The translations under genes were made by a program, and so were the position numbers. Shown one piece after another: positions 2,881 to 37,953 of a DNA stretch of 64,000 nucleotides. The stretch's first letter is position 1. Every line of letters starts with the position of its first letter. The DNA comes from Candidatus Giovannonibacteria bacterium (lineage in GTDB: Bacteria > Patescibacteriota > Minisyncoccia > UBA11713 > 2-01-FULL-45-33). The notes beneath the pieces were generated by a model. That model was not told the origin of the DNA. It saw nothing but the letters and a program-made list of their open reading frames with translations, and did no database searches. The stretch spans positions 150,281 to 214,280 of the forward strand of contig CP066687.1 in assembly GCA_016432405.1 (NCBI GenBank), given 5' to 3'.

Positions 2881-4091
2881 AAAAGGGGCAAGCAGCACTA
2901 ATAGCGGTGATTTTGATGCTGATTATAATGCTCTCGGCGGTTTTCGGGGCTTCAGCGGTCGCGCTCACGGAATCGCGCGCCGCCAACAAATCGCTCAATT
3001 CAAGATTTTCCTTTTTTGCCGCGGAAGCCGGGGTGGACGACGCGGTTTACCGGCTAAAGCGCGGCAAAAACCTGCCTTCGTCTTTTACCATTAACTTAAA
3101 CGGCGCCTCGGCCCCGACGACGGTGGCAACCAACGGAGGGGTTAAAGAAATAAAATCAGTCGGGGCGTATTTCGGCGCAACCAGAGCGGCGCGGGCCACG
3201 CTTTCCAATTCAACCGGCGTTTCATTTTACTACGGCGTGCAGGTGGGAGAGGGCGGGCTTGAGATGGAGCAGAATTCGGAGGTCCGGGGAGCGGGCGGCG
3301 CGGCGGGAAGCGTTTATTCCAATGGCAATATTGAAGGCGAGAATGGTTCGACTATAACCGGCGACGCTTTTTTAGCGGGAGCTTCCACGATTTCGGGTGT
3401 GACGGTAGGTGGAAATATTCAAACTGGCCAATCGTCTTTGCCGATGCCGATTCCGGATGCCGTGATTCAAGCCTGGAAAAACGACGCGGCGGCAGGCGGA
3501 ACCATCACTGGAAATTGCGGGGACAACGGCTCTCTGGGATGCAACATCGACAATAACGGCACGCTTCCTTTGGGTCCTAAAAAAATAAACGGCAATCTCG
3601 TTTTAACCAAAAAACAAACTTTAATTGTAACCGGAACGCTATATTTCACAGGCCACTTGGATATGGACAGCTCATCCGGCGCCGCAATAAAATGCGACCC
3701 GTCTTTTGGAACCAATAGCTGTATAGTGATTTTTGACGGCTGGATGCATATTAAAAATAATTCAGTCTTTCAGGGATCCGGAACTGCTGGAAGCTATATT
3801 CTTGTTTTAACTACCCTGCAGAATTGCAACGGACAAGACGGCGCGTCCGGATGCACGCATCACAATGCAGGCATAGATTTGCACAACAATGCCACTGGCG
3901 CGATATTTTATGCCGGAGATTCAATGATTAATTTGCATAACGGCGTAGGCGTTACAGAGCTTACCGCTTATAAATTACAATTGGACAATAACGCCGTCGT
4001 AACTTATGAACAGGGCTTGGCCAACGCTAATTTTTCTTCCGGACCCTCCGGCGGCTGGGATATTACCGGCTGGGCGGAAGTTGTGCCATAA
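2877..4091 (+). CDS. PilX-like large minor pilin with Gly/Asn-rich (beta-helix-like) C-terminal region
   Basis: N-terminus KGQAALIAVILMLIIMLSAVFGASAVALTESRAANKSLN resembles PilX_N; 404 aa. Confidence 0.55.
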   Translation: MKKGQAALIAVILMLIIMLSAVFGASAVALTESRAANKSLNSRFSFFAAEAGVDDAVYRLKRGKNLPSSFTINLNGASAPTTVATNGGVKEIKSVGAYFGATRAARATLSNSTGVSFYYGVQVGEGGLEMEQNSEVRGAGGAAGSVYSNGNIEGENGSTITGDAFLAGASTISGVTVGGNIQTGQSSLPMPIPDAVIQAWKNDAAAGGTITGNCGDNGSLGCNIDNNGTLPLGPKKINGNLVLTKKQTLIVTGTLYFTGHLDMDSSSGAAIKCDPSFGTNSCIVIFDGWMHIKNNSVFQGSGTAGSYILVLTTLQNCNGQDGASGCTHHNAGIDLHNNATGAIFYAGDSMINLHNGVGVTELTAYKLQLDNNAVVTYEQGLANANFSSGPSGGWDITGWAEVVP

Positions 4092-4098
4092 TCAATAT

Positions 4099-5157
4099 AT
4101 GAAAATCCCGATGCCGAATTTTTTAAAGCTCCCCATCTACGCTTTTGAGCTTTCGGACAGGTCGTACAAATATCTGCGGCTTGGCGAAGTGCGCGGAGGG
4201 ACGGTTGTGAACGATTTTGGCGAAGGGGAAATTGCCGCGGGGGTGATTGAACACGGAGAAATCAAAAAAAGGGACGTGCTTGCGCCTCTCTTGAAAGAAC
4301 TTTTTTTAAAAAAGGACATAAGGTTCGTGGCCGTTTCTTTGCCGGAAGAAAAAGGATTTCTGGAAAATGTCCAGTTGGCCGGAGTAAAAGAAGAAGAGAT
4401 CAGGCAAGCGCTTGAGCTGCAGTTGGAGGAGCATATCCCCCTGCCTCCGGGCGACGTCTTATTTGATCACGAGCTTGCCCGCAAAGACAAAAATCATTTT
4501 GATGTGGTCATAAACGCTTTCCCCAGGACGCTCGTGGAAAGTTATCTTGATACTTTTTATTCAGCAGGCGCGCTGCCAACTTTTACGGAGTCGGAGCTTG
4601 CGGCCTCGGCGAGAGCGCTCATTCCGCAAAATTTCAGAGGCACCGCGATGGTTATAGACTGGGGTAAAACCCGCACCAGCTTCTATATAGTTGAGGACGG
4701 GCGCCTTCGCTTTGCCTCCACTATCAACATAGGCGGAGAGTCGCTTGATGCGGCCATCGCGAAAACCTTGGGCGTCAGCCAAAAAGAGGCGGAGAATTTA
4801 AAAATCAAAAATGGGTTGCTGCAGAATCAGGATTCCCTTCAGGTTTTCCAAGCCATCATCCCGACCGTGACGGCGCTTCGGGAAGAAGCGGAGAAATACA
4901 TAAACTTTTGGCAAACACATTCCGAAAACAAAAAATTCCCGGAGAAAATTTTCCTCTCCGGCGGCGACGCCAATATGAAGGGGCTTGCGGAACATTTTGC
5001 GGAAGAACTCGGTGCGGAAACCGCCGTGGCGAATCCATGGGTCAATGTTAAATTTCCAAAATATTATCTGCCGGATATCACCAGGCAGCATGCGGTGCGT
5101 TTTTCGGCGTCAATCGGCCTTTCATTGGCGGCTAAAGAAAGAGAAGAAACGATATAA
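4099..5157 (+). CDS. pilM: Type IV pilus assembly protein PilM (actin-like ATPase fold)
   Basis: Start chosen at in-frame ATG 4099 (MKIPMPNFLKLPIYAFELSDRSYKYLRLGEV…); PilM-like length and motifs. Confidence 0.82.
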   Translation: MKIPMPNFLKLPIYAFELSDRSYKYLRLGEVRGGTVVNDFGEGEIAAGVIEHGEIKKRDVLAPLLKELFLKKDIRFVAVSLPEEKGFLENVQLAGVKEEEIRQALELQLEEHIPLPPGDVLFDHELARKDKNHFDVVINAFPRTLVESYLDTFYSAGALPTFTESELAASARALIPQNFRGTAMVIDWGKTRTSFYIVEDGRLRFASTINIGGESLDAAIAKTLGVSQKEAENLKIKNGLLQNQDSLQVFQAIIPTVTALREEAEKYINFWQTHSENKKFPEKIFLSGGDANMKGLAEHFAEELGAETAVANPWVNVKFPKYYLPDITRQHAVRFSASIGLSLAAKEREETI

Positions 5158-5158
5158 T

Positions 5159-5728
5159 ATGTATTTACTCACGCCGGCTTACGAAAAGGAGTTTAGAAAA
5201 GAAAAAATCGCGAGAGTCTCGGTAAGCTTTCTGGCTATGCTGATATTGGTTGCGGCGGCAGGTTTTATTTTCATGCTTCCTTCTTATTTCGTGTCGGTTT
5301 TTTCAAAAGATTATATTCTGCGGCAACTTAAAGCCGGGGAAGAGGTTTTCGCAAGAAAAGAATTCAAGAGTCTGGAAGAGCGGGTTGCCGGCGCCAACTC
5401 CCTGATATTTGCTTTTGAAAGAAACGAGGCCAAAAGATATCCGCTTTCCCCAATTCTTCAAAAAATCGCCCTCCGGACGCCGCCTGAAATCAGGATTGAC
5501 TCAATTAACTTCGGCCGGGCCGGCCGAGAAGAAAACATATTCAGTTTCGGAATCCAGGGCGAGGCGGACTCGCGCGAAGACCTTTTGAAATATATTGAGG
5601 TTCTGCGGAGCATGGAGGAATTCGCCTCGGTAAATTCGCCGGTCACCAATCTGCTTAAAGAAAACCGCGCGTCTTTTTTCTTGGACATTAAAATTAAACC
5701 GGAGCGCTACAAATATGCAGAGGAGTAA
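5159..5728 (+). CDS. pilN: PilN-like fimbrial assembly protein (single N-terminal TM)
   Basis: Start at internal ATG 5159 (MYLLTPAYEKEFRKEKIARVSVSFLAMLILVAAAGFIF…); position after pilM. Confidence 0.6.
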   Translation: MYLLTPAYEKEFRKEKIARVSVSFLAMLILVAAAGFIFMLPSYFVSVFSKDYILRQLKAGEEVFARKEFKSLEERVAGANSLIFAFERNEAKRYPLSPILQKIALRTPPEIRIDSINFGRAGREENIFSFGIQGEADSREDLLKYIEVLRSMEEFASVNSPVTNLLKENRASFFLDIKIKPERYKYAEE

Positions 5729-6625: not shown

Positions 6626-6640
6626 CAAGATAAAAATAAA

Positions 6641-6668
6641 AAGCAGGGGAGAATTCCCTGTCTCTCCC
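6641..6668 (-). terminator. Intrinsic terminator oriented for the reverse strand
   Basis: 9-bp stem CAGGGGAGA/TCTCCCCTG with 10-nt loop; U-run (CTTTTTATTTTTA) follows on the reverse strand only. Confidence 0.6.
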
Positions 6669-6856
6669 CTGTGAGTTGATGCGCCTTCAACGAGGCGCCA
6701 TTGTTATCTTTTCAGCCCGGAGTATCTAATTCCGAGCCGCCTTCCTGCCTCCATCCTCGGTCGCCTTTTTGGGCGTGGGCTGGCGGTTTTTGAGCCGTCT
6801 GGTAGCGGCTCGTTACCATACAGGTACGCCAGTGCGACCTTACCCGAACGTGCCCA

Positions 6857-6952
6857 TTACCAGACGGACGCGATGATCTCCGCTTTGTTGACCTTCGCCT
6901 TCTGCGTCAGTGCCAGCTGGAGACACGCGTCGGGTGCGCGTATGCGCTTCAT
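6857..6952 (-). CDS. Small ORF (31 aa, MKRIRAPDACLQLALTQKAKVNKAEIIASVW) with strong SD; part of a GC-rich reverse-strand transcript
   Basis: GGAGGTG 7 nt upstream of ATG; below ORF-track size cut-off; G/C-ending codon usage atypical for this genome. Confidence 0.35.
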   Translation of the reverse strand: MKRIRAPDACLQLALTQKAKVNKAEIIASVW

Positions 6953-13632: not shown

Positions 13633-14016
13633 TTAAAGTTTCTTGGCGAAATCCACTATGGCGCTGGCGATGGCGTAAGCGCCCACCAAAAGCGCCGTTC
13701 CGACAATTGTCCAGTAAAAGGTTGATTTGGCTTTTTTGAGCTGTTCGTCGTTGCCCCTTGCCGATACGAAGAGAAACCCAGACCAGACAAGAAACACGGT
13801 TGCTAAGGGAATACCTATTTTAACCATAAGGTCAGCGAACCCCTTGACCACTGCGCCGAAAGACCCAGCGTTAATCGGGTTTTTAAGCTCATAAAACGGC
13901 TCAACGGCCCTCGCCCGGACTCCTAAATTCACCATAGCATAAACAAGGCCGAAAAGGAAGAACTTAGCGCGGTTTAGCATAGGTTTATTATACATATTTT
14001 TAAGGGAAAACCACAT
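13633..14016 (-). CDS. VirB2/T4SS-pilin-like two-TM membrane protein with signal peptide (paralog 4)
   Basis: IPLATVFLVWSGFLFVSARGNDEQLKKAKSTFYWTIVGTALLVGAYAIASAI. Confidence 0.5.
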   Translation of the reverse strand: MWFSLKNMYNKPMLNRAKFFLFGLVYAMVNLGVRARAVEPFYELKNPINAGSFGAVVKGFADLMVKIGIPLATVFLVWSGFLFVSARGNDEQLKKAKSTFYWTIVGTALLVGAYAIASAIVDFAKKL

Positions 14017-14854
14017 GGATGTGGTTTAGCTGTTTAAGCTGGGCTTCCGTAAACGGAGTGCCCCCGTTGCTTATCAAACAACTGGTTTTGCTTGAACGCA
14101 AATCTCCATTCTGGCTTTCGCATATTGCCTCTCTGGATAAAAAACTTGCTCTGCGGCGCAGCGCGGTAAGCGCCGGGATTTCAACCGCGCCGGAACAAGA
14201 CGGTTTAATGTCAACTACCGGCTTGCCTATGCCATGGGTTTGGTGCAGCGCGCCTTCGCCTTCCGTGCCTCCGCTTATGCAAAATCCTCCGGACGTCGCC
14301 AGCGCTTTAAGCCCCGCGGCCGCGCCCAGCGGCAGGCCTTTAAGGTCTGTGCAGTTCGTGGTTTGGCCCGCCGTGCACGGGCTTTTATTAATTTCTATGC
14401 CGGTATTTTGGAAATACGCCCTTGCCGCTTCTTCTGTTTGGAATGTCCCCGCCGGAGGAGTAATGGGTGGCGGAGGCGCGATTGGAGAAGGAGTCACAAT
14501 CGGCGCAGGGCAGGCGTTAATTGACTCCCAAGACCACGTTAGCTTGCCTTGCCCCAATGTGTTTATTATTGTGTTCACTATAAGCCACGCTCCGAAAGCG
14601 ATGAAAATTCCTATAACGCTGGATGTAAGTATATTTTTGCCTTTTTCAATCTGCGCCGGCTTGCCGGAGCTGGTCAGCCACACAATTCCCCCGATTAAAA
14701 GCGCGAGCGCCAAAATCGGAAGCGCAAGCCCTTTGAGCAGAAAATCAACTATGTTGCCGGCCAAATACCAGAGATAGCACGGGTCGCACGCCGGATAATT
14801 CCCGTATCCGCAAGGAACAAGTCCCGCAATTAAAATTTTATTTTTCGTAATCAT
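14000..14854 (-). CDS. Pilin-like two-TM N-terminal domain + Pro-rich linker + C-terminal peptidase M15 (VanY-like)-like domain (paralog 5)
   Basis: N-terminus LPILALALLIGGIVWLTSSGKPAQIEKGKNILTSSVIGIFIAFGAWLIV; linker PAPIVTPSPIAPPPPITPP; C-terminus …ALHQTHGIGKPVVDI… and …LNHIHVVF resembling SxHxxGxAxD / WHxxV zinc-peptidase motifs. Confidence 0.45.
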   Translation of the reverse strand: MITKNKILIAGLVPCGYGNYPACDPCYLWYLAGNIVDFLLKGLALPILALALLIGGIVWLTSSGKPAQIEKGKNILTSSVIGIFIAFGAWLIVNTIINTLGQGKLTWSWESINACPAPIVTPSPIAPPPPITPPAGTFQTEEAARAYFQNTGIEINKSPCTAGQTTNCTDLKGLPLGAAAGLKALATSGGFCISGGTEGEGALHQTHGIGKPVVDIKPSCSGAVEIPALTALRRRASFLSREAICESQNGDLRSSKTSCLISNGGTPFTEAQLKQLNHIHVVFP

Positions 14855-16142: not shown

Positions 16143-16676
16143 TTATTTATTGAAAATTAAGCCGTAATGGTGCGACCCGGCTGCGAATTCCTTGAAAAAT
16201 TGGAAGCCGGCGCCCTCCATATTTTTTTTGGCCTCCTCGCGGCTGATTCTGTGCTCAAGCGGAGGAACGGCTCCGGAGGCGCTGTCTTCCCATTCCACAA
16301 CCATCGCGCTCCCGCCTTTTTTTAAAATTCTGTATGCCTCTTTTGCCACCGCGTTTTTGTCTTCCGCCTGAAAAAGTATGTTCGCGATAAGGACTTTGTC
16401 CGCGCTTTCGTCGCGCAAGCCGGAGCCCTGCGGGAGCTCCAAATCGGCGCGTTGCGGCTCTATGTTGAAGAGGTGGAAAAGTTTTATTTTGGCGCGCGTG
16501 GCCTCCAGCGCTTCCGGGCGGATATCCAGCGCGTAGACTTTCCCCTGCGGGCCGACTCTTTGCCCCAAGGGCAATGAAAAAAATCCCGCCCCGCAGCCAA
16601 AATCGGCGACTTTGTCGCCCGGGCGGATATCCCAAACCCCCAAAACTTCTTCGGGCTTCATAAACCCATTTGGCAT
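16143..16676 (-). CDS. Class I SAM-dependent methyltransferase
   Basis: Motif I VADFGCGAGFFSL; 177 aa. Confidence 0.8.
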   Translation of the reverse strand: MPNGFMKPEEVLGVWDIRPGDKVADFGCGAGFFSLPLGQRVGPQGKVYALDIRPEALEATRAKIKLFHLFNIEPQRADLELPQGSGLRDESADKVLIANILFQAEDKNAVAKEAYRILKKGGSAMVVEWEDSASGAVPPLEHRISREEAKKNMEGAGFQFFKEFAAGSHHYGLIFNK

Positions 16677-16714
16677 GAGTTTATTTTAACAAAAAAACAA
16701 ACCTTTAAGCATAC

Positions 16715-16742
16715 TTGACAATATTGTAAAAAGGAGTATAAT
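16715..16742 (+). promoter_or_regulatory. Consensus sigma70 promoter TTGACA-N16-TATAAT followed by ~120-nt leader
   Basis: TTGACAatattgtaaaaaggagTATAAT at 16715-16742; ATG of downstream gene at 16866. Confidence 0.6.
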
Positions 16743-16865
16743 TGGACAAGATTAAAGTATTGGCAGTTTCGCATGTGCTTACGCGGACACTTAGCGAAAA
16801 TGCCCCCTACAACCTCGGGCAGAGGGAAGTTCCCCGCAGACAGCGGAGGAAAGGAGGATTTAAAA

Positions 16866-17462
16866 ATGAAGTATGGCGAATTGACTCTGGGACAGGTGGA
16901 AGCCATCGTCAACAAGATTGGCGGGGTGGACGGCGTCAGGCGCCTACTGGCAGGAGAGCTATCGGTAAGGGCCACAGAGGAGTCAAAACTTCTGGAGCTC
17001 CTTGGTACCGTGACCATCCCCGCAAGAGCCGAAAGGTTTGTCGTGGCCGAGAAATTCGTGGTGGACACGAGCGAGAACGCCAAAGTGAAAATCTCCTATC
17101 TTGGAGAGAACCTCAAGGCCTTGTTTCTCGGCAAAACTGAGAATCCGATGGGTGAGAGCTCACTTTGCTACCACAAGCTTTGCAGGTACTCGCGGGACAT
17201 TCCTATCATCAGCGAGCTCGGCGAGGAGAAAGCCGAGACCACGCTTGCCGAAATCTACGTTCTCTTGGAGCGGCAGAGAAACGGCAAGAAAGGGGTTCTC
17301 CTTACGAATGGAGCCGCGAACATTTTCTATGTTCGCAACATTCATGGAGACCTCTGCGCGGTCCTTGCGCTCTGCCGTGAGGACGGCTGGCTCGTGAACG
17401 CGTACTCCGTTGGGTCTCCGCGCGTGTGGAACGTTGGCATCCTCGTCTTTTCCCGCAACTGA
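16866..17462 (+). CDS. Hypothetical protein (198 aa), compositionally foreign
   Basis: Start ATG 16866 with GGAGGA SD; ~56% GC with G/C-ending codons (AAG, GAG, CTG, ATC) unlike neighbouring genes; no recognisable domain. Confidence 0.55.
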   Translation: MKYGELTLGQVEAIVNKIGGVDGVRRLLAGELSVRATEESKLLELLGTVTIPARAERFVVAEKFVVDTSENAKVKISYLGENLKALFLGKTENPMGESSLCYHKLCRYSRDIPIISELGEEKAETTLAEIYVLLERQRNGKKGVLLTNGAANIFYVRNIHGDLCAVLALCREDGWLVNAYSVGSPRVWNVGILVFSRN

Positions 17463-17490
17463 TACTTTTTATTCCTTTGACCCCTCCGTT

Positions 17491-17850
17491 TTAGAGCCAA
17501 GTGTTTGCAAGCGCTTGGCTCTTTCTTTTTATCTTGATATTATTACGGATGAACTTTGCTGGCATCTCCGGCCAAGGCTTGAGGTGGCAAAATTCCGGTA
17601 GGAATTTTTTATTCCGCAAAGCGCGCGCGAGTGTTGCTTTTCCGATTTTGAATTCTTTATATCCTTTTTGAATTTGTTTTTGTAGAGAAGCATTATTTAG
17701 TTCAAGAAAATCTTCCATATCTTCAAAATCCACGATACCAGCTATTGGTTTGCCTTGTTTTTCCACCACCACAAAATCGCCGCTTCGTAATTTACCAACG
17801 ATGCCGGGCAATTTTTCTTTTGCTTCTTGGATTGAAAGTGTTTTGACCAT
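17491..17850 (-). CDS. Phd/YefM-family type II antitoxin-like protein (orphan; no co-directional toxin gene)
   Basis: N-terminus MVKTLSIQEAKEKLPGIVGKLRSGDFVVVEKQGKPIAGIVDFEDMEDFLEL typical of Phd/YefM. Confidence 0.6.
   Translation of the reverse strand: MVKTLSIQEAKEKLPGIVGKLRSGDFVVVEKQGKPIAGIVDFEDMEDFLELNNASLQKQIQKGYKEFKIGKATLARALRNKKFLPEFCHLKPWPEMPAKFIRNNIKIKRKSQALANTWL
17493..17530. terminator. Bidirectional intrinsic terminator between convergent genes
   Basis: AGAGCCAAG-12 nt-CTTGGCTCT hairpin then TTCTTTTT. Confidence 0.6.
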
Positions 17851-35396: not shown

Positions 35397-35497
35397 ATTT
35401 TAAAGGTTGGCAGTTTTAACAGTTAATTTAAAACCTGTTGGGGTAAACCGCCAGCTTTGCCGGCAAAACACAAAAAACATCTAAAAAACGGAGGCTT

Positions 35498-35510
35498 TTG
35501 TTATCCACAG
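35498..35510. repeat. Left inverted repeat / perfect DnaA-box 9-mer TTATCCACA(G)
   Basis: ttgTTATCCACAGg; matches reverse complement at 37210-37222 over 10 nt. Confidence 0.5.
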
Positions 35511-35564
35511 GATATATGATGTAGCGTTGTTGCAACGCGCAGGCGGCTGTGCTAATATAAGTAT

Positions 35565-35906
35565 ATGGAAAAAAATAACGAGTTAGGGCAAATTTTAAAG
35601 GCATACCGGGAAAAGGCTTTCCCTGATCAGGGCTTACGCAGAGTTGCTGCTAAAATCGGGATAGATTATGCGCATTTATTTCGGATTGAATTGGGGCAAT
35701 ATACTCCAGCGGACGAAACTCTGCTTAAAATTTTAGACACTTATGGCATAAAAGATCTCGATGAAAGATTAAAAGTATTTAATTTGGCGCGATTATCACC
35801 AAGTCATCAGGAAGCCATAGAAAAAGTAGCGAAGCAATATGAGGGTAAGCCACAAGAATTTGTTGAAGTATTTTATCGGAAAAGCAGAAAAAATAAATCT
35901 AAATGA
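35565..35906 (+). CDS. XRE-family helix-turn-helix transcriptional regulator
   Basis: Cro/C1-type HTH (LGQILKAYREKAFPDQGLRRVAAKIGIDYAHLFRIELG). Confidence 0.7.
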   Translation: MEKNNELGQILKAYREKAFPDQGLRRVAAKIGIDYAHLFRIELGQYTPADETLLKILDTYGIKDLDERLKVFNLARLSPSHQEAIEKVAKQYEGKPQEFVEVFYRKSRKNKSK

Positions 35907-36595
35907 GTAAAGTTGTTAATAACATTTTGTATTTAAGTAATGAGATGATTGAATCGCATGCAAGCGAGGATCTATTAAAATTTCAAAAAGTAACTGGACA
36001 TCCTCTTGCGTTTCCGATATACCCAGAAGAAGTTTTAAGGAATATTTGGGGCATCCAAGTTGAATATCTGGACAGAGTTAAATCTCTGGAAGGCGAGGAA
36101 GTTCTAGCCTGTTTTATGCCGGGAACCCACTCCGTTCGTTTGAATAACTCAATGCATAGCGTGGAAGGAAGCGTTACGTTCAGCATCGCTCACGAAACCG
36201 GACACGTTTCGCTTCACAATTTTCTATCAGATCTAAAGGAAAAACCAACTTTTTGCGAAGGTTCTATTTTTGGCCGGAAAGCATTAAAAACGATTGAGAG
36301 GCAAGCGGATAGATATGCGTCAGCGCTTTTAATTCCTCAATATGTTCTGATGCCAAAACTAGAATCCATCGGTTGGTCTTTGGGGAAAAAATTAGATTTA
36401 CAACTTCACGGCAGGCCATTAAAAGAATATTTTGGGGTTTCCTTTGAGGCATTAGAGCGTCGGCTTGGATTTTTTGGAATACCTACAATAGGAGGTTTTT
36501 ATAACATTCCATCCAAAAAAATAAAGAATGTTGTTTTTGAAAAAATGGAAGAGGAAAGGGCGAGTTGGGCATTATATGACAAACGACGAGCATAA
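35903..36595 (+). CDS. ImmA/IrrE-family metallo-endopeptidase (DUF955)
   Basis: HEXXH motif IAHETGH; 4-nt overlap with upstream XRE gene. Confidence 0.75.
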   Translation: MSKVVNNILYLSNEMIESHASEDLLKFQKVTGHPLAFPIYPEEVLRNIWGIQVEYLDRVKSLEGEEVLACFMPGTHSVRLNNSMHSVEGSVTFSIAHETGHVSLHNFLSDLKEKPTFCEGSIFGRKALKTIERQADRYASALLIPQYVLMPKLESIGWSLGKKLDLQLHGRPLKEYFGVSFEALERRLGFFGIPTIGGFYNIPSKKIKNVVFEKMEEERASWALYDKRRA

Positions 36596-36609
36596 AAGCA
36601 AAAATTATT

Positions 36610-36882
36610 ATGCCAAATCCTTTAAGAAATAGGGGTTACGAAGAAATTATCAGATTTTTAGAGCATTGTGGATGTAGCCCCGGCCCTATTCACGGCGACG
36701 ATCAAATTTTTTATCATCCAAATAATAAAAATTGGGGCATTAAGGTTAATATAAATCCCACACTAAAAAGAAGCGGTTACCCAATTGGAACGCTTCTGGC
36801 TAACATACGTTCCTTAAGAGCAATATCAGGAATTGAGAAGAAGGAGTGGATTAAATGGTTTAGTGAAAAAAGAAATTTCTAA
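36610..36882 (+). CDS. HicA-like (YcfA family) toxin-like protein
   Basis: …IHGDDQIFYHPNNKNWGIKVNINPTLKRSGYPIGTLLANIRSLRAISGI matches HicA pattern. Confidence 0.5.
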   Translation: MPNPLRNRGYEEIIRFLEHCGCSPGPIHGDDQIFYHPNNKNWGIKVNINPTLKRSGYPIGTLLANIRSLRAISGIEKKEWIKWFSEKRNF

Positions 36883-37149
36883 CCATTTTGCAATGTTCGC
36901 TATAAATGGCAAAACGAAAAATAAAATTCTGTAATTCAATGCCGGTTTTTGATTAATTGCTTTTTCCGACAACTTATTCTCATTTATTGTTTTAAACGTT
37001 GCAATGATTCCGTTGTGAACATGGTTTAAAACATCATCTATTGAATTACCAACATCAACGTAACCAGTTTCGTATGTAATCCCAACATAGCCCTCTTTGC
37101 CACGATAAATGAGGATGTGAAATGTTGCTGATTTTAATGTATTTTTCAT
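36826..37149 (-). CDS. HicB/UPF0150-like antitoxin-like protein (convergent, 57-nt overlap with HicA-like gene)
   Basis: N-terminus …ATFHILIYRGKEGYVGITYETGYVDVGNSIDDVLNHVHNGII resembles HicB N-domain. Confidence 0.4.
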   Translation of the reverse strand: MKNTLKSATFHILIYRGKEGYVGITYETGYVDVGNSIDDVLNHVHNGIIATFKTINENKLSEKAINQKPALNYRILFFVLPFIANIAKWLEISFFTKPFNPLLLLNS

Positions 37150-37209
37150 GTCTATTCTATAATGTCATTATAGCAAACCGGTAACAAAAAATTGTTAGAT
37201 AAAAAGCTG

Positions 37210-37222
37210 GCTGTGGATAAAA
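37210..37222. repeat. Right inverted repeat / perfect DnaA-box 9-mer (CTGTGGATAA)
   Basis: gctggCTGTGGATAAaaat. Confidence 0.5.
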
Positions 37223-37291
37223 ATGACTTAGCGTAGCATAGCATATTGAGCTATTAATTGTCAATGCCAAACCGCCTACAAGACGAGATAT

Positions 37292-37618
37292 TTAAAAAAA
37301 CCAATAAATCACCGCGGCTAAAAAACCGACTATGAGTATGAAACTGGCAGTCCCCCAAATTACCCACTCCCATATTCTTTTTCTCTCTTCCGGCGCTGCC
37401 TCCCTTTTTCCATATATGGTATATAAAATCACTGCTCGGATAACAAAAAGTAATATCAACCATATAAGTGCGTTGATAGCGCTATCGATCAATAGAAAAA
37501 TATTGGGTTCGTGTACTATCCATGGTGCGATAAACGCGCCGACAAAAACCGAAACAGCAACAACTTTAAATATCCGGTACCAAATTTTCTGATTAAGCTC
37601 TTCTGGTTTTGGTCTCAT
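37292..37618 (-). CDS. Small polytopic membrane protein (hypothetical)
   Basis: Start at internal Met (MRPKPEEL…) because upstream part of track ORF overlaps tRNA genes; three TM helices. Confidence 0.4.
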   Translation of the reverse strand: MRPKPEELNQKIWYRIFKVVAVSVFVGAFIAPWIVHEPNIFLLIDSAINALIWLILLFVIRAVILYTIYGKREAAPEERKRIWEWVIWGTASFILIVGFLAAVIYWFF

Positions 37619-37633
37619 ATAGTATGGTTTTTG

Positions 37634-37704
37634 TAGCGGGGGCCGGATTTGAACCGGCGTCTCAAGGTTATGAGCCTTGCGAGATACCACTTCTCCACCC
37701 CGCG
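37634..37704 (-). tRNA. tRNA-Met, initiator-like (anticodon CAT)
   Basis: Reverse complement CGCGGGGTGGAGAAGTGGTATCTCGCAAGGCTCATAACCTTG…GGTTCAAATCCGGCCCCCGCTA closely resembles bacterial tRNA-fMet (C1 unpaired with 72). Confidence 0.7.
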
Positions 37705-37792
37705 ATGTAAAACAAATTTTACTCCGTTTTTTTGAAAAAGCAAGTTTCAAGCTGGCAGAAACTTTAAAAATGTTATATATTAAGTCGTAACT

Positions 37793-37864
37793 GCCGGCGT
37801 AGCTCAGTGGCAGAGCGAGGGACTCATAAGCCCTAGGCCGCAGGTTCGATCCCTGCCGCCGGCA
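37793..37864 (+). tRNA. tRNA-Met or tRNA-Ile2 (anticodon CAT)
   Basis: GCCGGCGTAGCTCAGTGGCAGAGCG…anticodon loop CTCATAA…GGTTCGATCCCTGCCGCCGGCA. Confidence 0.75.
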
Positions 37865-37878
37865 AATGCGAAAATTAT

Positions 37879-37953
37879 GCAGCCGTAGTGTAGCCCGGTT
37901 AACACGCCTCCCTGTCACGGAGGAGATCGTGGGTTCAAATCCCATCGGCTGCG
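37879..37953 (+). tRNA. tRNA-Asp (anticodon GTC)
   Basis: GCAGCCGTAGTGTAGCCCGGTTAACACGCCTCCCTGTCACGGAGG…GGTTCAAATCCCATCGGCTGCG, discriminator G. Confidence 0.85.

Follow-up and report, generated by a model that had tools for sequence, protein, structure and literature searches.

Results

The gene at 16866–17462 and its flanking signals

The window, by which is meant the whole 64-kb stretch of DNA that was analysed, is part of a contig of 651,549 bp from Candidatus Giovannonibacteria. On its plus strand, at positions 16866–17462, there is a coding sequence of 198 amino acids, whose product is listed as QQG42801.1 (HYW15_01155) and which is found among core genes, such as those of a methyltransferase and FtsZ, and beside a low-GC Phd-like ORF. 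The ORF is real, and its GC content of 55.4% is close to the approximately 56% given in the initial annotation. The start at 16866 is the correct one, because the MKYGELTL sequence encoded there agrees with the N-termini of the homologues, which begin with MKYG(E/N)LTLGQ. The NCBI start at 16800 (220 amino acids) is too long; it falls within the leader RNA, and the N-termini of the homologues favour 16866.

A sigma-70-type promoter is predicted on the plus strand at 16715–16742, consisting of TTGACA (16715–16720), a spacer of 16 nt and TATAAT (16737–16742), with a match at 12 of the 12 positions. Such a perfect TTGACA-N16-TATAAT site, which had already been pointed out at these positions, is present only once in the 64 kb, with 0.01 sites expected by chance. 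The predicted transcription start site of the gene is at about 16749, such that the leader is approximately 117 nt long (123 nt when counted from the -10 box). The Shine-Dalgarno (SD) sequence AAGGAGG (16851–16857, plus strand), as read from the sequence, is located 8 nt before the ATG, in agreement with the earlier description of a leader of approximately 120 nt with a good SD. Near-consensus promoters are also seen 90–185 nt 5’ of the start in approximately 27 of 85 homologous loci.

Downstream of the gene an intrinsic terminator is predicted on the plus strand (17493–17532), in which a hairpin (17493–17522) with a 13-bp stem and a UGCA tetraloop is followed by UUCUUUUUAU (on the plus strand, the T-tract TTCTTTTT). 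The stem is not followed by a T-tract on the minus strand, where the sequence reads AAAACGG. Concerning the proposal that this is a bidirectional terminator (17493–17530), the hairpin and the plus-strand T-tract are indeed observed, but not the T-tract that would be required on the other strand. Because the T-tract is on the plus strand only and the Phd-like ORF crosses the hairpin, the terminator is predicted to be unidirectional, serving the plus-strand gene only.

The convergent Phd/YefM-like ORF (17491–17850, minus strand, 119 amino acids) is present as previously described, and no toxin ORF that could be its partner is found. Its match with Pfam PF02604 (E = 5e-6, 26.6 bits) is below the gathering score of 29.8, and the NCBIfam match is weak. 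Its tail of approximately 58 residues is unrelated to Phd and runs through the terminator stem of the neighbouring gene. This ORF may be a degraded TA module, and, with a GC3 of 0.37, it is the more atypical gene of the convergent pair.

The encoded protein and its homologues

The protein is predicted to have a two-helix N-terminal module (residues 1–35) and a C-type-lectin/FGE-like (CLec/FGE-like) domain (residues ~42–198). In the predicted fold the variable region (VR) is located in the C-terminal strands, as expected for a target of a diversity-generating retroelement (DGR). No match of this protein is found in Pfam, NCBIfam, PHROGs and PADLOC, nor in a profile search against the PDB sequences, and Foldseek gives no significant match in the PDB and BFVD. 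The absence of a recognisable domain, as noted initially, is therefore true for the profile libraries, but the fold and the family can be recognised; the comparison of remote homology and structure provides a predicted CLec/FGE-like fold but no significant Foldseek match against PDB/BFVD.

The gene had also been referred to as an orphan. This does not hold, as a first search identified 196 homologues, all from Patescibacteria, and an exhaustive phmmer search identified 2,186 matching cluster representatives (E <= 1e-3); the sequence identity of the window protein to its homologues is 44–61%. For three homologues (L001, L004 and L005), a bAvd gene and an RVT_1 gene are located directly downstream, and the last ~115–125 nt of the target gene are repeated ~535–550 nt downstream. 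Between the VR and this repeat, the template repeat (TR), all mismatches are at TR adenines (14/14, 16/16 and 13/13, respectively), and the VR and the nearby TR of approximately 35 further loci also differ almost only at TR adenines. A downstream repeat with adenine-only mismatches is the signature of a DGR, whose TR accompanies a VR located in the target gene. The order target(+)-TR-Avd(-)-RT(+) is common among 80 loci of species-representative genomes, and, among the species representatives whose flanks are at least 4 kb long on either side, DGR parts are present in 24 of 42 loci and absent from the other 18. Judged from these sequence comparisons, the gene at 16866–17462 belongs to a large family of Patescibacteria genes for the variable (target) proteins of DGRs.

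Among the stand-alone copies there are trans targets. The VR of L083 matches the TR of L031 of the same MAG, with 11 of 12 mismatches at A, and the VR of L009 relates in the same way to the TR of L018 (23 of 29 mismatches at A). The stand-alone copy L061 (8 of 24 mismatches at A) is not a trans target and has drifted. A terminator, defined as a hairpin of at least 7 bp with a T-tract at most 110 nt (mostly 20–60 nt) after the stop codon, is present in 46 of 80 loci; the stems are mostly 12–20 bp long, often with a tetraloop, in cassettes and stand-alone copies alike. By analogy, it is our assumption that this hairpin may double as a DGR target-recognition hairpin of the phage BPP-1 type.

Among the relatives there are also proteins with two to five tandem whole variable-protein domains in one polypeptide, including P0243 (926 amino acids) and P0244 (379 amino acids). 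In several loci (L166, at 3974–4207 of that locus, and also L039, L045, L059 and L077) annotated short ORFs correspond to the TR, read in the frame of the VR; these TR-derived pseudo-proteins are N-rich, for example ...NLLNANRNDDGRWLNAYNDRPDNRWNRDNG....

The variable region of the window gene and the DGR of the same genome

The former VR of the window gene (17345–17462, plus strand) is colinear with the TRs of homologous DGRs, and its variable codons are 167–193 (17364–17444). It can be aligned gap-free, codon for codon, with the TRs of L035, L010 and L018. At the 10 AAY codons of these TRs the window gene has CTT, CTC, CGT, CTC, AAC, TAC, TCT, CGC, AAC and ATC, such that 8 of the 10 sites have NNC/NNT replacements, which appear to be the footprint of past adenine mutagenesis. 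Over the final 120 nt of the gene, A3 is 0.02. Trp170 is shared by at least 90% of the family; the window protein has a cysteine at this position, and this replacement is due to a non-adenine change.

A repeat of the region 17200–17470, being a copy of the TR, is not found in the 64-kb window, and neither are RT or Avd genes, as the best E-value of tblastn searches of the window with three RTs and three Avds is 0.17. With a Giovannonibacteria DGR RT as the query, one RT (P0149) is found on the same 651,549-bp contig, outside the window. It is part of an intact cassette (locus L166, 3082–5569 in the numbering of that locus), in which the target gene (3082–3717, 211 amino acids) is followed by the TR (4037–4165), Avd (about 4190–4480, minus strand) and the RT (4568–5569). 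The VR and TR of this cassette differ at 15 positions, of which 14 are TR adenines. In the 12-kb DGR locus that was scanned, no similarity between the L166 TR and the VR of the window gene is detected, and the 3’ end (the IMH region) is unrelated as well. The search for TR, RT and Avd thus concerns the 64-kb window plus this 12-kb locus of the 651-kb genome.

The two target genes of this genome are otherwise unrelated, but they have the N-terminal helical module in common. The shared region of approximately 30 residues (LT.GQ..AIV.K.GG......L..ELSV) is encoded by 16866–16970 of the window and by 3106–3195 of L166, with 57% identity, and this module co-occurs with the leader motif described below.

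The VR of the L166 cassette has 19 differences between the assemblies SRR12113426 and SRR12113433, against none in the 700 nt around it; likewise, the second allele departs from the TR almost only at adenines. In addition, two of the three Logan contigs examined start at or just after the VR (L167, 1–165, at the VR; L168, after the target gene). The differences at 19 sites between the runs, together with the contigs starting at or after the VR, indicate that the L166 cassette is actively diversifying in the population. The window locus is 100% identical in SRR12113426, -433, -428, -424, -390 and -401 (1–2.7 kb around the gene), in a comparison of consensus assemblies, which could hide low-frequency VR variants.

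The leader RNA

The leader is predicted to contain three structural elements, all on the plus strand. The P1 hairpin (16762–16804, GGCA-UUUCGC...GCGAAA-UGCC) is obtained from a single-sequence fold and ends right at a C-tract. It is followed by the core of a proposed H-type pseudoknot (16805–16825), in which CCC (16805–16807) would pair with GGG (16817–16819) in the loop of P2 (16813–16825), the latter being formed by CCUC (16813–16816) and GAGG (16822–16825) with the loop GGGCA. The P3 hairpin (16830–16851; UUCCCCGC paired with GCGG(A)GGAA, loop AGACA) abuts the SD. A P1-like hairpin is also present in the homologues, where its length varies and its end is at the CCC tract or close to it, and the SD is 0–4 nt after P3 in all aligned leaders.

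A covariance model with the two hairpins P2 and P3 (R1) was made from a trimmed alignment of 10 leaders, leaving out P1. It matches the window at 16796–16868 with 62.7 bits (E = 1e-13). In approximately 1.26 Mb this model gives 24 matches at E < 0.01, each of which terminates at the start codon of a target gene whose product has an MKYG-type N-terminus. The second-round model (R2) adds weaker matches (24–27 in total), including the leader of the L166 cassette target. With both models, no matches are found away from target-gene starts in the 1.26 Mb.

The pairing scheme is well preserved when the leaders are compared. Standard pairs are seen in 90% of the alignment cells, compared with 71% in shuffles (0 of 500 reach this value) and with 29–44% when the 3’ partners are slid. 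There are 56 cells in which both sides have changed, compared with 19.5 in shuffles, and changes on both sides concern 9 of the 11 pairs overall and 5 of the 6 pairs of P3 (23 distinct leaders). In P2, CG is exchanged with UA (10 versus 10) and UA with GC (11 versus 8). RNAalifold, using an independent MAFFT alignment, also recovers P2 and P3, with 7 of 9 pairs compensated. The CCC:GGG pseudoknot pairing is satisfied to 97%; it has one compensatory change (to U:A) and two wobble changes and is otherwise invariant. The GCCCC tract, the GGGNA loop, the GAAG linker and the A-rich loop of P3 are conserved as unpaired bases. When the leader is folded as a single sequence, the result is unremarkable (z = -1.5), and the SD is free of pairing in the predicted fold. 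A switch by pairing of the C-tract or of the 5’ arm of P2 with the SD was also considered and is rejected, as this complementarity is not conserved (the arm is CCUC or CUCGC, depending on the leader).

The suggestion in the initial annotation that the leader has room for a cis-regulatory RNA is thus borne out by a conserved, covarying structure, found only upstream of this gene family, and the proposed scan of the leader with Rfam did not yield a family: there is no match in 16600–17600 even at E <= 10. At the gathering score, Rfam finds only tRNAs and a tmRNA in the window, and no leader family is found in 11 homologous loci either. From these comparisons the leader appears to be a conserved structured RNA that is specific to this gene family and matches no Rfam family. 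As P3 and the pseudoknot are inside the expected 30S footprint and several unpaired bases are conserved, it most probably serves as a translational operator to which a protein or a small ligand binds.

A separate sequence box, YTCTTTGAH, is seen just 3’ of the -10 element, at approximately -130 from the start, in 11 of 77 leaders of the family (for example, L010, L027, L096 and L152), with 0.017 expected per region. This box, which is absent from the window leader, may be an operator or a 5’-end element.

Codon usage of the window gene and of its family

With a GC3 of 0.70 the window gene is at the top of the 70 ORFs of the window (mean 0.52, SD 0.085, z = 2.1). The neighbouring genes for the methyltransferase, FtsZ and FtsA have GC3 values of 0.62–0.64. 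The composition had been described as foreign; it is indeed the highest GC3 of the window, but the gene is at the upper end of a continuum and is not a gross outlier. Similarly, of the G/C-ending codons listed at that time, GAG, ATC and GGC are preferred (as are AAC and GAC), but AAG is not (5 AAG compared with 7 AAA).

This property is shared by the family. The GC3 of the target gene is higher than that of its neighbours in 68 of 68 homologous loci, by 0.23 on average (Wilcoxon p 8e-13), and the target is top-ranked in 55 of them; in AT-rich hosts the excess is up to +0.5 (up to 0.75 versus 0.24; loci L001–L085). In the 18 complete cassettes the mean GC3 is 0.68 for the target, 0.46 for the RT, 0.44 for Avd and 0.49 for the neighbours, and the GC3 of the RT tracks that of the host (r = 0.93). 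Also in the genome studied here, the unrelated L166 target has a GC3 of 0.73, compared with 0.55 for rpsL and 0.60 for rpsG. Because all 68 loci are biased, RT and Avd are host-like and the unrelated cassette target behaves alike, the bias is no evidence of recent transfer. The G/C-ending bias is a conserved, intrinsic property of the gene class and not a cassette-wide foreignness. This finding, that a composition resembling that of horizontally transferred DNA is a trait of a gene class, is also a caution for island-finding methods.

The third-position shift of the targets (C3 +0.17, G3 +0.05, A3 -0.12, T3 -0.10) spans the gene from end to end and peaks in the VR. Part of the bias is explained by this VR being poor in A and rich in NNC codons, and the remainder is a C3 enrichment that extends over the whole gene. 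Avoidance of adenine is rejected as the cause of the bias in the gene body, as T3 is depleted as much as A3, and ordinary high-expression codon bias is unlikely, as rpsL and rpsG of the same genome only reach 0.55–0.60. We know of no published explanation for the GC3/C3 enrichment of DGR targets. The anomaly may point to DGR-linked selection or to a mutation bias.

Elsewhere in the window, the region 35400–37800 has a GC content of 33–40%, with ORF GC3 values of 0.29–0.33, and lies beside a tRNA cluster (37634–37953). As a candidate for foreign DNA, this region is preferable to the gene at 16866–17462.

Discussion

The favoured reading, to which we assign a probability of approximately 0.75, is that 16866–17462 is a decoupled DGR variable-protein gene, being a self-contained unit with the codon bias of its gene class and a conserved pseudoknot leader. 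The consensus promoter, the structured leader, the strong SD, the ORF and the strong terminator would together form a self-contained expression unit. The encoded protein would combine the short N-terminal helical module with a C-type-lectin-like ligand-binding domain, of which the last ~40 codons are the VR. In many relatives this region is rewritten through adenine-specific mutagenic retrohoming by a DGR (TR, Avd and RT), which is either adjacent or remote, and the window copy would be cut off from this machinery, its VR being fixed in the population. As no TR, Avd or RT is found in the 64 kb, the L166 TR matches another VR, and the window VR is fixed, the gene most likely provides a single, frozen binding specificity that remains from past diversification.

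Two other views of the gene need to be considered. The initial annotation regarded it as a recently acquired gene of unknown function with foreign codon usage, and the highest GC3 of the window, the lack of a match in the profile libraries and the location between core genes, beside the low-GC Phd-like ORF, are consistent with such an event. However, a family with 2,186 cluster representatives is large, the raised GC3 recurs at each of the 68 homologous loci whereas RT and avd within the cassettes do not deviate from the host, the unrelated L166 target of this genome is equally biased, and the window locus is clonal across samples, which makes a recent horizontal acquisition very improbable. 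The gene could also be an active trans target, with its TR located outside the 64-kb window, given that remote targets exist in the family (L083/L031 and L009/L018), that the genome has an active DGR (L166) and that the hairpin 3’ of the VR is retained. This possibility is unlikely, though somewhat less so than a recent acquisition, as neither the L166 TR nor its 3’ IMH region matches the window VR, Trp170 was replaced by cysteine through a non-adenine change, and the VR and its flanks are invariant in the six runs, including both runs between which the L166 VR differs at 19 sites.

Concerning the function of the leader, P1, the H-type pseudoknot (CCC:GGG and P2) and P3, positioned against the SD, would allow translation to be gated within the 30S footprint. 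An alternative explanation is that the leader has a generic role, stabilising the 5’ end of a highly expressed mRNA or enhancing its translation without a specific regulatory partner. The consensus promoter, strong SD, strong terminator and GC-rich codons would suit a high and stable expression, the length of P1 is highly variable, and the predicted fold leaves the SD free. Such a generic role is nevertheless difficult to reconcile with the strong conservation of the unpaired GCCCC tract, GGGNA loop, GAAG linker and A-rich P3 loop, and with the CCC:GGG complementarity, including its one compensatory change; moreover, a general enhancer should recur elsewhere, and the motif is limited to one gene family. 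It is considered to be a real possibility, but one that falls clearly short of even odds. Returning to the decoupled target gene with its pseudoknot leader, it is tentatively proposed, as a speculative extension, that the leader represents a cis-regulatory RNA of a new class (an operator or riboswitch with a pseudoknot, gating translation), dedicated to the DGR variable-protein genes of Patescibacteria and possibly autoregulated via the co-occurring N-terminal module, and that the C3/GC3 enrichment, arising from selection or from a biased repair tied to retrohoming, is a second signature of DGR targets, unrecognised so far. If true, DGR targets would be regulated and shaped as a class, even after loss of the retroelement.

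Pseudoknot translational operators are well known from the phage T4 gene 32 and from the rpsO/S15 and alpha-operon/S4 systems of E. coli. As in these systems, the predicted window leader has an H-type pseudoknot some tens of nucleotides before the start of a single gene, inside or beside the ribosome-binding region; this likeness is one of architecture only, and there is no sequence similarity. The leader also resembles the preQ1-I/II, SAM-II, fluoride and guanidine-III riboswitches, which are compact H-type pseudoknots with conserved loop bases near the SD, and like these small pseudoknot riboswitches it is restricted to the 5’ UTR of one gene family. It differs from them in that the pairing partner is 5’ of the hairpin, the SD is outside the pseudoknot, the downstream gene does not suggest a ligand and the Rfam models fail to match. 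Structured RNAs of retroelement loci have been described as the RT-associated motifs RT-1 to RT-19, which adjoin RT genes and of which RT-10 is found in the BPP-1 DGR (Weinberg et al. 2017, PMC5737381). The leader resembles these motifs as a structured RNA with an association to retroelement loci, including those of DGRs, but it is part of the 5’ UTR of target genes, even of those that have no RT nearby, and none of the Rfam RT motifs is found in the homologous loci at the gathering threshold.

The DGR targets of CPR bacteria are abundant, functionally opaque and without recognisable domains. The targets of the Patescibacteria 'DGR clade 2' have been described as having no recognisable domains (Roux et al. 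2021, PMC8144416), and the window protein is likewise without a signal peptide, TM segment or Pfam domain. Its predicted CLec/FGE-like fold is like that of the C-type-lectin variable proteins of DGRs, such as Mtd of the Bordetella phage and TvpA of Treponema denticola. In contrast to the Mtd/TvpA-type and clade 2 targets, the window protein is small (198 residues) and has the N-terminal helical module, its gene has no adjacent RT/Avd and no cognate TR in the 64-kb window and the 12-kb DGR locus, and its VR is static while the DGR of the genome acts on another gene. The window gene is thus a clean natural case of a target separated from a DGR that is still active in its own cell, and could serve to study the role of a frozen variable protein as well as the gain and loss of targets. 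The pseudoknot leader, in turn, provides an experimental handle on the expression of variable proteins, in organisms for which almost no regulation is known.

Other features of the window

The initial annotation had mentioned a small ORF at 6.7–7.0 kb with the same codon bias. This is not confirmed. The region (6630–6952, minus strand) lies between two tRNA genes and consists of a 31-residue ORF (MKRIRAPDACLQ...), which has a strong SD, and of a structured part 3’ of it. The latter part comprises approximately 200 nt of GC-rich structured sequence (z = -2.15) that ends in a terminator hairpin, and no Rfam match is found for the structured region of 6630–6952. At 13633–14854 (minus strand), two adjacent genes encode proteins with T4SS-pilin/TrbC-like domains (PF18895).
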